From assembly GCF_013329165.1 (NCBI RefSeq), contig NZ_DUKV01000039.1: a stretch of 64,000 nucleotides of DNA; one strand, 5' to 3'. Positions 39,089-63,158 of this stretch are shown piece by piece. This stretch comes from Methanocalculus sp. (GTDB lineage: Archaea; Halobacteriota; Methanomicrobia; Methanomicrobiales; Methanocorpusculaceae). The translations under genes and the position numbers were made by a program. Numbering within the stretch: the stretch's first letter is position 1; each line of letters opens with the position of its first letter. Under the pieces are notes generated by a model that was not told the origin of the DNA, did no database searches, and saw only the letters and a list, made by a program, of their open reading frames with translations.

Positions 39089-39328
39089 TTACGCACTATT
39101 CCTGAAGAGATGCGGGTCCAAGCCAGCCACGCTCTTCCTGCACCCTTCCCGGCTGCTGTTCAGGCCTATACCAAGTTCTTTCCCGGCATGAACAGGAATT
39201 GAGAGATGAATCTGGCTACCAGCTTTCACCAGGATATGATGACTCCCCTCAATATGATTGACAATCCATCCTGCTCTTTTGAAGGCTGCGATGTGTTTAA
39301 TTGCGTTTGCTCGCGGGAGCTTAGGATC
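39089..39328 (-). pseudogene. hicA: HicA-family toxin relic (no start codon, foreign C-terminus)
   Basis: Open frame (D)PKLPRANAIKHIAAFKRAGWIVNHIEGSHHILVKAGSQIHLSIPVHAGKELGIGL containing GSH and PxH motifs; in-frame TAG just upstream, no ATG. Confidence 0.75.
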
Positions 39329-39516
39329 GATAGTCTATGTGAACTCATATACTGAAAAGATGATATGACTTGCTTGGTTCTTCAGAAACATCAGCAAACA
39401 TATCCTCTTAATATTTCTGAGTATCAGGGAATGTCTATGAGTGAACAGATCTTCGGCTTCTCAATTGGATAATATATTGCGCGTTATGATTGGTGAAATA
39501 TTATATAAATTAATTA

Positions 39517-40227
39517 CTATATAAGTTTTGAATTAATCATATCGGCGAGCATTCTGCCCAATTCAGTGAGCCGTATTGAGATATTGCGTCCTTTCTTTAC
39601 CTTTTTAATAAATCCGGCCTCCTCAAGCTTTGAGAGATGGTGGGAGAGCCGGCTCCGCTCGCTCTTGAATTCCTTGCTATCCTTCTCGATATCGGGGGTA
39701 ATCATGAAGATAAGGCTGTCGAGTGACTCGACTCCCTCTCCAATGAGAGTGATAATATGCCGCTGTTCTTCACCAGGATAATCCACCGGGATGACCGGGA
39801 TCTCAATGACCTCCTCAATTCCGATCTCCTCTCCCATGTCATCATATTTCGGGATGGCTGTAATCATCTTCGATCCGGTCATACAGGCGGCGATATAGGC
39901 ACCAACCGACAGGGTATGGGTTGAGCCGGATGTATTGAGGAAGACATCATTTCCAATCATCTTCTCTTCAGTGATCATTGTGAAGAGCTGGTTTGCTGCC
40001 TTCAGAACAGATTGCTTGTCAACTGCCCGGATGTCAATATCCCAGAGCATCTTCAGCTCATTCTGAATCTGCTTTGCAACCTTTTCGATATTCTGTTCAC
40101 TGGCTTTATTTTTATCTTCCCCGACGATAAGAAAGAGTTTTGAGAACGGAATCTCACGAAGGGCGCTGATCGACTCGATCAGGCGATCCTTCTGATTTCC
40201 CACAAAAACAATATGTGTGGTAGGCAT
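39517..40227 (-). CDS. CARF-like Rossmann + wHTH regulator (Csa3/DUF6293-like)
   Basis: THIVFVG, VFLNTSGSTHTLSVGAYIA, EIPVIP linker, RSRLSHHLSKLEEAGFI...LTELG. Confidence 0.75.
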   Translation of the reverse strand: MPTTHIVFVGNQKDRLIESISALREIPFSKLFLIVGEDKNKASEQNIEKVAKQIQNELKMLWDIDIRAVDKQSVLKAANQLFTMITEEKMIGNDVFLNTSGSTHTLSVGAYIAACMTGSKMITAIPKYDDMGEEIGIEEVIEIPVIPVDYPGEEQRHIITLIGEGVESLDSLIFMITPDIEKDSKEFKSERSRLSHHLSKLEEAGFIKKVKKGRNISIRLTELGRMLADMINSKLI

Positions 40228-40298
40228 GTACGTATAGCTATCTCGTTGAATCGTGTATATATCTTTCTATGGATCAATCTCATTTTCGAAGTCCTTAC

Positions 40299-40316
40299 AT
40301 TAAAGTTGACTTTAAT
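40299..40316. promoter_or_regulatory. Perfect 8-2-8 palindrome between divergent CARF-wHTH and protease genes
   Basis: attaaagt-tg-actttaat. Confidence 0.55.
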
Positions 40317-40494
40317 CTTTTGACTCATCAATTTGTTTTCCAGGCAATAGTTATGCATTTCCTCTAAAAATACCAGAATCGTGTAAAGCATCGACCATTG
40401 TATTCATGGCTGATTTTTCTCTTCTATCACCCGGGGAAGGGAACGTGAAAATCCCCTGAATCACAATAATTATCCTTCTGAAAAAGATTAGTAT

Positions 40495-41370
40495 ATGGAA
40501 TCTACTCCTTCCTCTGATATCAAAACAGGATCTACAATCCACTCAAATCCATTGATTACGATTTCAACCTTCGTCATTCTCACCTTCATCTTCTCTTCAC
40601 TCTTCTGGTACCTGATATCAGAGACCCCGGCAATAGCAGACAATATCTCCCGCTTACTTCTCTATACGGTAGTCGTGATGTGGTGCCCGACGCTTGCTGC
40701 CATACTCACCTGGCTGTACTTTCAACGGAACCTGAAAGGCTTTGGAATAGGTTTCAAAAAGCCGATCTGGCTTCTTGGTGCGGCCCTCTTACCTATTGGA
40801 GCCGGTCTCCTGATGTTTGGGTCCGCCTGGATCTCAGCTATTGCCCCTTTCAGCCATGAAGGAGCAGCGATGATCTTCTCGATCAGCTTCATCCCTGCAT
40901 TCTTTACCGCACTTGGATTCAACCTCTTCGCAGCAGCCGGTGAGGAGTTTGGGTGGCGGGGGTTCCTGGTTCCCGAACTTGCCCGGTTCCAGAGTTTCGC
41001 ACCCCTCGCACTGATCTCTGGCGGCATATGGACGGTCTGGCACTTCCCGCTGATCATCTTTGGATCCTATCATGGGGCCGGATCTCTTGCCTTCTCCCTT
41101 GCCGTCTTCATCCCCTCGGTGATGGGTGCAGGACTCATCCTTGCCTGGCTCCGCCTTATGTCGGGATGTGTCTGGGTTGCCGTACTCTTCCATGGCTTCT
41201 GGAACTATTTTATCCAGCAGTTCTACCCGGCGCTTACACAGATGACCGATTCCGGGGAGATGATGCTTGGAGAATTTGGCTGGTTTGCTCCTGTCCTGTA
41301 TGTGGTTCTGGCACTCATCTTCTGGCATTACAGAAATGCACTGCCGAAACTGCCAGCAGAGGGGTTGTGA
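40495..41370 (+). CDS. CPBP/Abi-family intramembrane glutamic endopeptidase
   Basis: GEEFGWRG, WTVWH, AVLFHGFWN. Confidence 0.88.
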   Translation: MESTPSSDIKTGSTIHSNPLITISTFVILTFIFSSLFWYLISETPAIADNISRLLLYTVVVMWCPTLAAILTWLYFQRNLKGFGIGFKKPIWLLGAALLPIGAGLLMFGSAWISAIAPFSHEGAAMIFSISFIPAFFTALGFNLFAAAGEEFGWRGFLVPELARFQSFAPLALISGGIWTVWHFPLIIFGSYHGAGSLAFSLAVFIPSVMGAGLILAWLRLMSGCVWVAVLFHGFWNYFIQQFYPALTQMTDSGEMMLGEFGWFAPVLYVVLALIFWHYRNALPKLPAEGL

Positions 41371-41438
41371 GCCGAGGCTCATTCTGAGGATCTGATCTCA
41401 GGGGCAATGGTTTTTCAGAAGGGGTGACTCTTTCTTCC

Positions 41439-42077
41439 TCAGTTTGAAATCCTCTTTTCCTTTGAAGGCTGAATCCGAAACCCTCCTTTTGGAACCTGGA
41501 TTTAAAACCTCGTTCCCTCTCCGGGCATCCCGGTCTCTGAAATGGAAATTCCGGGAATCTCAAGGATCTCTCTGACATGGAAAAGGCCAAAACCTGTATG
41601 TTTTCCAACTTCACTCTCAAAGATCTTCTCTTTCTGATCATATGGGATTACCCGGCCCGTCATCTTCCCAAGTGATGAGGAGGCCGGCATCTGTCTCCTG
41701 GCATTGAATAGTGATGCCTGTTACCCCTTCTGCATGCCTGAGGCAGTTATCATAGAGGTTCATAAATACCTTCTCGATCATCGGCTCAGCATCGATCAAC
41801 ACTGGATCACAATCAGAGGTGATTGGTAACGTGGAGTCGTCGATCACATTGGGGAGGCCGGATAGCGAGATCCACTCAGGTTCGTTGACAGCGATCTGGT
41901 CATACTGGCGGGTAAATTCGATCTGTCTCTCTATCGCATCAGCAGCGACTTTCAGCTCCTCAAGGTACTCAGCAAGCTCCTCGTCTGATTCTTTCTCCCG
42001 ACAACTGCCAGGTACCCTTTGATCGTCATAATCTTATTCAGTATATCATGGCGGCTGATGCTCGAGAGAAGGTTTAA
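41439..42077 (-). pseudogene. Sensor histidine kinase C-terminal fragment, decayed
   Basis: SISRHDILN (H-box), NLYDNCLRHA, EDDGPG, KHTGFGLF, GEGTRF spread over three frames, with an in-frame TAA and no sensor domain. Confidence 0.85.
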
Positions 42078-42402
42078 GACTGGTTTTGGTCCCCCTCTCT
42101 CAAAGCGGGCGTTAAAGAGCCGTTCAACGGAGATAAGAGAGGCAAAGAATTATTACCCCCAATAGCAGATACAGGTACCGGCGAGGAGTACCCCCTCTGG
42201 GCATAATTGATCTCCTCGTCGTGCTTTGCCACGATAGGAGAATATCCTATATTTTTGCAGAAGCAATGAACCTTTTGTACCGTATAATCGGTGGAGCATA
42301 GAGCAGTTGATCATCCCGGACATCTCTGAATATCAATCCATTTGGTCCATGTCCTGTAAATATCCTTAAATGGGCTTACATTGACACTCTACACAGCTCC
42401 AC

Positions 42403-43005
42403 ATGAATGTTCAAACCATCGAACACTATTGTTTAGGTATTCTGGAACTGATTATCATCTGGTTTGCCTGGAAGGCTTTTCTCAATGAAGATACCGTCCG
42501 TTTTTCTGTTGCCATCATCTCTATGGCTCTTATACTCATTCCATCTCTCATGGAGTTCTTTTTATCCATCCAGCTCCCAACAGGCACCCGTCTTGCCGTG
42601 GCCATCGCTCTCCTCTTCCATGTGGTTGGTGGAATAAACCAGTATTACTGGACAGATGCTCCCTACTATGATAAGGTGGCCCATTGCATCTCAGGCTTTG
42701 CTCTTGGCCTGGTTCTCTTCTCGACTTACCTCTATCTTGGCATGAGGGGTGTCCGGCTCTCACCATCTCATATCATTACAGGAATAATCTTTCTTGTCTT
42801 CGTTTTTGGTGTCGGATGGGAGATCGGCGAGCTTACCATTGACGCTCTGACCGGCTCCACCTATAATCCGGGAGCAGAGGATACCTTCTTCGATATGATC
42901 GGAAACACTCTCGGTTCACTTGTAGCGGCTACGTATGCACTCCGTACGATGAAAACAGCCGCTCCCGGAAAACCGGTCTTTTCCATCCTTAAAAAAACAG
43001 AATAA
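42403..43005 (+). CDS. Membrane protein, DUF2238/VanZ-like
   Basis: YYDKVAH, GWEIGE, DTFFDMIGN. Confidence 0.65.
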   Translation: MNVQTIEHYCLGILELIIIWFAWKAFLNEDTVRFSVAIISMALILIPSLMEFFLSIQLPTGTRLAVAIALLFHVVGGINQYYWTDAPYYDKVAHCISGFALGLVLFSTYLYLGMRGVRLSPSHIITGIIFLVFVFGVGWEIGELTIDALTGSTYNPGAEDTFFDMIGNTLGSLVAATYALRTMKTAAPGKPVFSILKKTE

Positions 43006-43039: not shown

Positions 43040-43113
43040 AGCCTCAGCCGTGATTTGAACACGGGACCTGCTGATTACAAGTCAGCCGCTATGCCGGGCT
43101 AAGCCACTGAGGC
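43040..43113 (-). tRNA. tRNA-Thr (anticodon TGT)
   Basis: Acceptor GCCTCAG/CTGAGGC, anticodon arm GCTGA-CT-TGT-AA-TCAGC, T-loop GTTCAAATC. Confidence 0.95.
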
Positions 43114-61483: not shown

Positions 61484-62355
61484 TCTACTGCGATAAACAG
61501 ACACGTATCCTTGTCCAGGGTGCAACCGGCAACCAGGGCGCCTTCCACATAGATCTGATGAACCAGTATGCCCGATCGGTCGGTGGTGCAGGCGTTGTTG
61601 CCGGGGTGACCCCCGGAAAAGGTGGCCGGGAAGTCCATGGTGTTCCGGTATATGATACCGTCCGGGAGGCGCAGGCTGCTCATGACACCGACGCGTCAGT
61701 CATCTTTGTCCCGGCAGGTGCTGCGGCAGACTCAATCATGGAGGCTGCCGATTCCGGGATTGGAACGATCGTTGCTATCACCGAGCATATCCCGGTGCAT
61801 GATGTGATGAGGGCAGTTGCCTATGCACGTTCATGTGGATCGGCCGTCATCGGTCCAAACTGCCCGGGTCTCCTCTCTCCGGGTGAATGCAGGCTTGGAA
61901 TCATGCCTTCTCCACTCTTTACACGTGGACCTGTCGGGGTCATTTCGCGGAGCGGAACCCTGACCTATGAGGTGGTTGATGAGCTCACCAGGGCTGGTAT
62001 CGGTCAGAGTACGGTCGTAGGGATCGGGGGCGATCCGGTGATAGGTGAAACCTTTGTTGATTGCATTGAGAAGTTTAGCAAAGATTCTTATACCAAAGCA
62101 GTCATCCTTATCGGTGAGGTTGGAGGTGCACTTGAGATTGAGGGAGCCGAAGCAGCACTCTCGCTCGATCTGCCATTGGTTGCATATATTGCAGGCGTCT
62201 CCGCTCCAAAAGAGAAGAGGATGGGTCACGCCGGAGCCATCATCGAAGGGGGTGAAGGTGATGCATTGTCAAAGATACAACGATTGGAGGCGATGGGAAT
62301 TACTGTTGTAGCACGCCCCTCCGAACTTCCCCAAAAAATAAGCGAACTGTTATGA
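61480..62355 (+). CDS. sucD: Succinyl-CoA synthetase alpha subunit
   Basis: VQGATG, GPNCPG, SRSGTLTYE, GIGGD, RMGHAGA. Confidence 0.95.
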   Translation: MIYCDKQTRILVQGATGNQGAFHIDLMNQYARSVGGAGVVAGVTPGKGGREVHGVPVYDTVREAQAAHDTDASVIFVPAGAAADSIMEAADSGIGTIVAITEHIPVHDVMRAVAYARSCGSAVIGPNCPGLLSPGECRLGIMPSPLFTRGPVGVISRSGTLTYEVVDELTRAGIGQSTVVGIGGDPVIGETFVDCIEKFSKDSYTKAVILIGEVGGALEIEGAEAALSLDLPLVAYIAGVSAPKEKRMGHAGAIIEGGEGDALSKIQRLEAMGITVVARPSELPQKISELL

Positions 62356-63158
62356 TCGCAGAGAAAGACCAGGTACTGATGGCGGCAGCAGCGGATCTTG
62401 CTCGTTCAGTTGATGCCATCGCCATACTTTCCTTCCTTGAATCGCAGCCTTTTGACTCTGATGTGCCGGTCATCTGGGTAAAGGAGTATCAGCCCGAGCT
62501 GATGATCAAAAAAAATATGCAGGAACTCCTGCTCTTCTGCGAACATCATATCCTTGATGCAGTTGTCCAGTATCATCTCAGAACCGAGGTTGCAAGCGGG
62601 AAGATCGTTGGTGTCTTTCCGTTTGCCATTCTCATTTATGATGTCGGGGAAGGGCGCGATTATCTTGATCTCGCCAGCTATGAGGATATTGTTCCATCTG
62701 ATATCCTCCATTCCGCGCTTGCTCTTGCACTTGAGATTGCGCATGAAGGAAGAGAAGGACGAAATATCGGCACCGCGTTTATCCTCGGGGATGGCTCATC
62801 CCTCCTTGCCCGTTCGCACCAGGCAATCCTGAATCCCTATGCAGGTCACCCCCTGTCCGTTTGTGATATCAGGAATCGTGAGAACTGGGAGAGCGTCAAG
62901 GAGTTTGCACAGCTTGATGGCGTCTTTATCATCACCAAAGAAGGGTACATCACCGCAGCAGGTCGCTATATCGATGCCGATTCGCGTGGAGTAAGCCTTC
63001 CTTCAGGGCTTGGCGGCCGCCATATGGCAACAGCTGCGATTACACGTGATGTGTCAGCTGTCGGAATTACCGTATCCGAGAGCGGCGGACTTGTCAGGGT
63101 CTTCCGTGATGGTGTCTGCCAGCTCACGCTAAGATCCGAGGTGGCGCTGACCAGATGA
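62352..63158 (+). CDS. dacZ: Diadenylate cyclase, archaeal DacZ type (DisA_N domain)
   Basis: EGREGRNIGTAF, EFAQLDGVFII, GLGGRHMATAAIT, VSES. Confidence 0.8.
   Translation: MIAEKDQVLMAAAADLARSVDAIAILSFLESQPFDSDVPVIWVKEYQPELMIKKNMQELLLFCEHHILDAVVQYHLRTEVASGKIVGVFPFAILIYDVGEGRDYLDLASYEDIVPSDILHSALALALEIAHEGREGRNIGTAFILGDGSSLLARSHQAILNPYAGHPLSVCDIRNRENWESVKEFAQLDGVFIITKEGYITAAGRYIDADSRGVSLPSGLGGRHMATAAITRDVSAVGITVSESGGLVRVFRDGVCQLTLRSEVALTR

Follow-up and report, generated by a model that had tools for sequence, protein, structure and literature searches.

A conserved CARF-wHTH regulator of the DUF6293/HFX_2341 family in Methanocalculus and its probably incidental pairing with a CPBP protease

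The 64,000-nucleotide stretch of DNA analyzed here, referred to below as the window, is from Methanocalculus sp. (NCBI RefSeq assembly GCF_013329165.1, contig NZ_DUKV01000039.1) and carries two divergently oriented genes at 39517–41370. The first of them (39517–40227, minus strand) encodes a 236-aa transcription factor of the DUF6293/HFX_2341 family (CARF3--CARF cluster of PADLOC), in which a CARF domain is followed by a winged helix-turn-helix (wHTH), and the second (40495–41370, plus strand) encodes a 291-aa CPBP (Rce1-like) glutamic-type intramembrane protease (PF02517). An earlier note on this DNA proposed that the two genes form a second-messenger-responsive module for stress or antiviral responses, and the question that this locus raises is whether CPBP is indeed a dedicated partner of the regulator. 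The arrangement itself is as the note described, because the CPBP gene is intact, has its catalytic residues and lies head-to-head with the regulator gene across a shared AT-rich spacer of 267 bp (40228–40494; GC 0.35). The proposed module was not borne out, as the pairing is not recurrent and no source of cyclic oligoadenylate was found in the genome. Most likely, with a probability of roughly 0.78, CPBP is not a dedicated partner of the resident DUF6293/HFX_2341-type regulator and the pairing is incidental.

A genome-wide scan identified 47 regulator loci, one of which belongs to the genome of the window itself or to one nearly identical to it. The remaining 46 are from Methanocalculus, Methanocorpusculum, Archaeoglobi, Methanoregula/Methanolinea, Methanomicrobiaceae and Methanosarcinales, and their neighbors were searched by tBLASTn, by clustering of all neighbors within 3.5 kb, with a hidden Markov model (HMM) built from 120 CPBP homologs and for the motif EExx[FWY]R. 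Co-occurrence of the pair across archaea had been suggested in the earlier note as a check, with a lack of recurrence speaking against a module, and an adjacent CPBP was found at three of these 46 loci (L002, L003, and L004), all of which belong to the window's subclade and have regulators that are 90–97% identical to that of the window. Among the nine Methanocalculus genomes, a CPBP ortholog is found in four, which constitute one subclade and in each of which it adjoins the regulator gene; the other five have no CPBP ortholog. Orthologs of CPBP with identities of 56–73% are also found in Methanoregula formicica, Methanomicrobium antiquum and metagenomic contigs, where their surroundings are unrelated and lack a DUF6293 gene. 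The only candidate for a divergent CPBP beside the regulator in other lineages was a weak CPBP located about 2 kb away at a Methanosarcina locus, and it was rejected.

Comparison with Methanocalculus sp. MSAO_Arc2 (L006) and with the nearest relative of the window (L004) indicates how the present arrangement could have arisen. The regulator gene has syntenic flanks in both, with ABC-transporter genes (36.3–39.1 kb; three genes in the comparison with L006) on one side and tRNA-Thr and DUF2070 on the other. In blastn alignments, positions 40278–42139 of the window, which contain CPBP and a kinase remnant, correspond to 165 bp in L006, which is an insertion of about 1.9 kb. The kinase remnant (about 41440–42100, minus strand, identified by three-frame translation) is a histidine kinase pseudogene with HisKA-like and HATPase_c regions, as the earlier note had recognized. 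Its coding sequence is split over three frames, such that the HATPase_c match (48 bits) was recovered only on a stitched read-through across at least two frameshifts, and some 2.2 kb that encode the N-terminal part in L004 are missing; longer kinase reading frames were called at the corresponding position in L002, L003, and L004. The variable segment (about 40.3–43.0 kb) is bordered by tRNA-Thr(TGT) (43040–43113, minus strand; ARAGORN; Rfam tRNA, 63 bits), and an element integrated at this tRNA gene was considered and rejected, given that no att-like repeat of tRNA-Thr was found and that the GC (0.52) and GC3 (0.60) of CPBP are typical of the genome. Thus, the segment is a variable spot, and these results lend no support to a discrete mobile island. 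We infer that, in the common ancestor of one Methanocalculus subclade, CPBP and a sensor kinase gene entered this spot between the regulator promoter and tRNA-Thr and that the kinase gene then decayed in the window's genome. Given such an insertion into a variable spot, the head-to-head layout is best read as an accident of the insertion site and not as a conserved module.

Several observations weigh against an incidental pairing. Divergent adjacency and a common spacer were found in all four genomes that have CPBP, so that a lineage-specific regulatory link is possible. The spacer contains a perfect palindrome, and the regulators of the CPBP-bearing subclade have unusual substitutions in their predicted ligand loops (H11N, H12Q, L103T, and R104H), which could reflect retuning near the time of CPBP arrival. 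It should also be noted that neighbor detection combined crude open reading frame (ORF) calls with BLAST and HMM searches and that several of the loci are on short contigs. These observations would fit a co-option confined to the Methanocalculus taiwanensis-like subclade, in which the resident regulator controls the newly inserted CPBP via the spacer, for example via the palindrome, as a young local unit for membrane or stress proteolysis, and the purifying selection acting on CPBP (dN/dS 0.17–0.23) would fit it as well. We nevertheless regard such a co-option as unlikely. The four genomes are closely related and represent one evolutionary event, so the retained adjacency is weak evidence, and MSAO_Arc1 has the loop substitutions but no CPBP. 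The palindrome, ATTAAAGTTGACTTTAAT (40299–40316, 18 bp, 72 bp upstream of the regulator start), is a weak operator candidate, to which an equally good one was found in 2.5% of shuffles. It is perfect only in the window and nearly so in L002, but is degraded in L004 and L003 despite the pair being kept there, and it is single-copy in the genome, with no second copy to mark a regulon. It lies about 35–50 bp upstream of the TATA box of the regulator gene, whereas some 180 bp separate it from the CPBP start, a position that also speaks against such a co-option.

The promoters in the spacer are likewise consistent with an incidental pairing. The TATA-like box of the regulator gene (about 40256–40266) lies within the block TTGATCCATAGAAAGATATATAC (minus strand), which is conserved across Methanocalculus in an alignment of seven upstream regions and is kept in genomes with and without CPBP. 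CPBP has its own TATA-like element, AATAATTAT, at 40465–40473, about 30 bp before its start, and every TTGA-type half-site in the spacer is at least 168 bp from that start. CPBP is most plausibly an accessory gene that is transcribed independently, and the locus cautions that divergent adjacency in one subclade is no evidence of a module.

What, then, is the regulator? Its N-terminal part matches HFX_2341_N (PF19810; 51.4 bits over residues 4–126, compared to a Pfam gathering cutoff of 30), which was also recovered in the genome search, and its C-terminal part matches the winged helix DUF6293_C (PF22665; 46.6 bits over residues 142–230, compared to a Pfam gathering cutoff of 27). The limits of the CARF domain and the wHTH are approximately residues 1–145 and 146–236, respectively. 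The PADLOC profile PDLC01862 (CARF3--CARF, in which CARF3 is PADLOC's own profile name) was matched over residues 1–233 of 233 (E = 1.5e-106, 353 bits), and this end-to-end match means that the exact subfamily of the regulator has already been catalogued. The score of about 50 bits places the regulator in a low-scoring subfamily of PF19810, in which HFX_2341-like proteins score about 120 bits, and on the HFX_2341 equivalog model NF051475 the regulator reached 22.8 bits with its N-terminal part alone, compared to a cutoff of 500. Judged from these sequence comparisons, there is nothing unusual about the regulator, a conserved protein of an archaeal family of Csa3-like transcription factors that has been described before; within this family, it represents a shorter sister subfamily of the HFX_2341-like proteins.

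A search of PDB sequences with the family profile returned marginal matches alone (best E about 0.05, Sso2081), because of which a fold search was required to establish the CARF fold. In the AlphaFold2 (AF2) monomer model, which was built from 73 homologs (pLDDT 90.6, pTM 0.83), an alternating beta/alpha Rossmann-like N-terminal domain is followed by a wHTH. All the top matches of this model in a Foldseek search of PDB were CARF proteins with a probability of 1.00, and the best full-length matches were the CARF+wHTH proteins SSO1393 and Sis0811 (TM about 0.6), followed by Csa3 in its apo and cyclic tetra-adenylate (cA4)-bound forms. The Pfam matches, the AF2 model and the CARF matches in Foldseek all support what had been read from the sequence in the earlier note, namely a Rossmann-like domain with FLNTSGS (residues 96–102) followed by a wHTH. 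The protein has a Csa3-like arrangement of CARF and wHTH but is not Csa3 sensu stricto, given that it scored 33.4 bits on the Csa3 model TIGR01884 (cutoff 60.2) and 34.6 bits on the Csa3 profile of PADLOC and that the residues for cA4 binding are not conserved.

The regulator is also well conserved. It is present in all nine Methanocalculus genomes, its family is present in 53 of the 121 Methanomicrobiales genomes, and the protein of the window is 90% identical to its M. taiwanensis ortholog. The dN/dS of 0.05–0.08 indicates strong purifying selection, which includes the CARF domain, as the CARF half alone has a dN/dS of 0.04–0.11 and is as constrained as the wHTH. The recognition helix F187-x2-ERSR-x-SHH197 (about 39637–39669 of the window) is essentially invariant across the 73 homologs, which are from several archaeal orders (H197 is found in 72 of the 73), and this implies a common DNA target or conserved operator. 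Half-sites of the TTCAA/TTGAA type were found upstream of the regulator genes at 35 of 44 loci (80%), compared to 51% of AT-matched control stretches. The size of this enrichment is modest, and shared ancestry confounds it, so that it is a hint only, which fits a conserved operator without proving one; enumeration of 5-mer inverted repeats singled out no motif. The members of the family are chromosomal, independent of CRISPR-Cas and for the most part inherited vertically. Analogy with HFX_2341 and Csa3 suggests that the regulator most likely acts as a dimer, as a repressor or other regulator, and contacts DNA via the F-x2-ERSR-x-SHH helix. It probably controls its own expression from sites no more than about 100 bp from its start, and its activity may be modulated by a small ligand in the pocket of the CARF dimer.

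Which ligand this might be is a real question for CARF-wHTH proteins in organisms without type III CRISPR and has been raised previously (PMC8844856, PMC11434293). In Csa3, cA4 is contacted by two motifs, Phi-G-F-(N/D)-x-z-F and pi-pi-G-Phi-R (PMC8844856), and binding is abolished by alanine at F10 and F14, at G96 or at R98 (PMC8844856, PMC8699464). In the beta1-alpha1 loop, where Csa3 has the former motif, the family consensus is V-G-H-H-K-E-R and the window protein has V-G-N-Q-K-D-R; in the beta4-alpha4 loop, where Csa3 has the latter, the family consensus is S-G-S-L-R and the window protein has S-G-S-T-H. Given the absence of the Csa3 contact residues, the Csa3-type cA4 pocket is not conserved in the regulator. 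The equivalent of Csa3 Arg98 is His in the window protein (R104H), which is found in four of the 73 family members, while 59 of the 73 have Arg. Both this residue and the family His-His pair are replaced in the window protein and its nearest relatives by the four subclade substitutions, and G43S is unique to the window regulator. The orthologs of the alkaliphilic MSAO_Arc1 and MSAO_Arc2 also have altered loops, and both are from genomes without CPBP.

These substitutions raise the possibility that ligand sensing has been lost from the CARF domain in this subclade and that the domain is retained as a dimerization scaffold alone, which would make the protein a constitutive DNA-binding factor. 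Consistent with this are the His at the Arg98 equivalent, the Ser at the Gly96 equivalent, the absence of both adenine-stacking Phe residues, the change of the His-His pair to Asn-Gln, and G43S. The CARF half is strongly constrained, however, and so must still do something, whether by binding another ligand, by dimerization or by both. Other residues of the pocket loops (G10, K13, K71, N98, S100, and G101) are kept, and a His can still contact phosphate. Dimerization alone could account for part of the constraint, which makes this argument less than decisive. We regard a purely structural role of the domain as improbable. The Arg-to-His change at the Arg98 equivalent is in any case a natural pocket variant that is usable in ligand-binding studies of the family. 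A more speculative scenario, to which we give somewhat less credence, is that the DUF6293 subfamily senses an endogenous nucleotide, such as the cyclic di-AMP (c-di-AMP) made by DacZ, with its CARF domain and independently of CRISPR. Its essentially invariant recognition helix would then bind a conserved operator, possibly with TTGAA-type half-sites, and the M. taiwanensis-like subclade would have retuned the pocket around the time of CPBP gain, by which the protease would have come under nucleotide-dependent control. As noted previously for this window, a dacZ gene is indeed present (about 62352–63158, about 22 kb from the regulator gene), and it was the only second-messenger synthase found in the searches for Cas10, CD-NTase and DacZ.

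The antiviral reading, in which a CARF sensor responds to a cyclic oligonucleotide and activates a CPBP effector for defense or abortive infection, can also be weighed against the rest of the genome, which was searched as a 1.93-Mb assembly (93% complete; the window is C34:98036-162035). The CARF fold and the wHTH are real, the debris of mobile elements is nearby (the HicA relic described below and the kinase pseudogene), and CPBP belongs to a family that has been called "Abi." Nevertheless, k-mer scans of the genome detected no CRISPR array, and the absence of a CRISPR locus that the earlier note had reported for the window was confirmed. The one candidate from these scans, at C48:11500-12000, consists of about five tandem copies of an 85-bp unit; since its "spacers" repeat too, it is no CRISPR array. 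Neither Cas2 nor Cmr2 nor a SMODS cyclase was found in the genome, where the best score for Csm1 was 18 bits, compared to a cutoff of 170, and no cas gene is among the recurrent neighbor clusters of the 46 regulator loci. A solo cas1 gene was found at C34:169314-170252 (PF01867, 155 bits), about 7 kb past the window end and about 31 kb from the regulator gene; it adjoins a TnpB-like ORF (171004–172158) and lies among housekeeping genes, with his genes, an ORF resembling acylphosphatase and an RFC-like ATPase at its flanks.

The lack of a recurrent pairing already largely refutes the antiviral reading. The genome has no detected Cas10 or SMODS synthase that could supply the signal, the residues with which Csa3 contacts cA4 are absent when compared with the published motifs (PMC8844856, PMC8699464), and the regulator gene belongs to the core genes and has syntenic flanks, which sets it apart from the cargo of an island. 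CPBP in turn has a native GC content and no match in PADLOC, in which nothing links it to phage defense. We therefore regard an antiviral or abortive-infection function of the pair as very improbable. To our knowledge, the name "abortive infection" of the CPBP family is historical and rests on no demonstrated Abi function. The protein of the window nonetheless has the features of an intact protease. It scored 53.8 bits on PF02517 (Pfam cutoff 22.4), its motifs EExxxR, FxxxH and HxxxN are intact, and the residues E150, E151, R155, H183, H233 and N237 are each found in at least 120 of the 121 aligned sequences.

If CPBP is incidental to the regulator, a better functional lead for the family is provided by the neighbors of its members in other archaea. 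In Archaeoglobi, the DUF6293 regulator gene is followed on the same strand, often at −6 to +70 nt, by genes for NurA and HerA or for RmuC. NurA and HerA were found beside the regulator at L013, L018, L019, L027, L030 and L037 and RmuC at L017, L022–L024, L028, L031 and L033. A beta-CASP/RNase J-like nuclease of about 510 aa with MBL and RMMBL domains is found beside the regulator in four clades (L021, L024, L026, L028, L032, L037, L039, L043, and L048). Thus, the DUF6293 family has recurrent nucleic-acid-enzyme partners, and it has them outside Methanocalculus; no homolog of the RmuC, NurA or beta-CASP neighbors was found in the Methanocalculus genome. At four Methanolobus loci (L041, L042, L044, and L045), a divergent gene for a 428-aa calcineurin-like phosphoesterase with a weak ApaH-like match is located about 155 nt upstream of the regulator gene, and this enzyme could be a nucleotide-degrading partner. 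This better lead thus comprises the NurA-HerA pair, RmuC, the beta-CASP nucleases and the phosphoesterase.

The other side of the regulator gene and the remainder of the variable segment also contain traces of gene turnover. A relic of the HicA toxin gene (about 39089–39330, minus strand; PF07927, 42 bits), which the earlier note had correctly identified, lacks a start codon, is frameshifted at its C-terminus and has lost hicB, and an intact hicB-hicA pair is located at exactly this position in the nearest relative (L004:6407-6896). The spot downstream of the regulator gene is thereby variable as well, with a 647-aa ORF found there in L002 and L003. Within the variable segment on the CPBP side, a predicted membrane protein of 200 aa is encoded at 42403–43005 (plus strand); the corresponding DNA does not align to L004, and the protein had no family match above threshold (best DUF2238, 14 bits). 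The region at 39–41 kb does have the lower GC content that had been remarked upon, although the dip is mild (0.45 vs. 0.518 for the whole window) and is attributed to the AT-rich spacers (0.35–0.45) and the regulator gene (0.46) and not to CPBP.

Among the known systems, the one characterized member of the family, HFX_2341 from Haloferax mediterranei, is a vertically inherited global repressor that was found to be Csa3a-like by HHpred and occurs in CRISPR-negative species (PMC11434293); c-di-AMP from DacZ was put forward speculatively as its ligand (Turgeman-Grott et al., 2024, PMC11434293). The window regulator shares with HFX_2341 the PF19810 N-terminal domain, the CARF+wHTH plan, a chromosomal location without cas linkage and a CRISPR-negative host, but it is 236 aa long compared to 308 aa and falls in a sister subfamily. 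With Csa3a (Sso1445; PDB 2WTE, 6W11, and 6WXQ), it shares a CARF domain with a C-terminal wHTH (Foldseek E = 3e-8), although the whole-chain TM-score is 0.43 because the domain orientation differs. In contrast to Csa3a, it scores below the TIGR01884 cutoff, has altered cA4 motifs and is found in no type I-A or type III context. The Crn1-type CARF+wHTH ring nucleases (Sso1393, 3QYF; Sis0811, 7PQ2) are similar to it in structure (TM about 0.6, E = 1e-8), and its beta4-alpha4 loop can be aligned with xTGGxK, a motif of the ring nuclease Sso2081; the identity is, however, 13%, the Lys/Arg position is His, and no cyclic oligoadenylate synthase was found in the genome. The window CPBP has all three catalytic motifs of the CPBP/Rce1 proteases (PF02517; MmRce1; the bacteriocin-immunity "Abi" proteins), but differs from MmRce1 in scoring 37 bits on its equivalog model, compared to a cutoff of 425. 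Set beside these systems, the locus adds one member to a catalogued family and not a new kind of system, and the CPBP partner of this member is a recent insertion.

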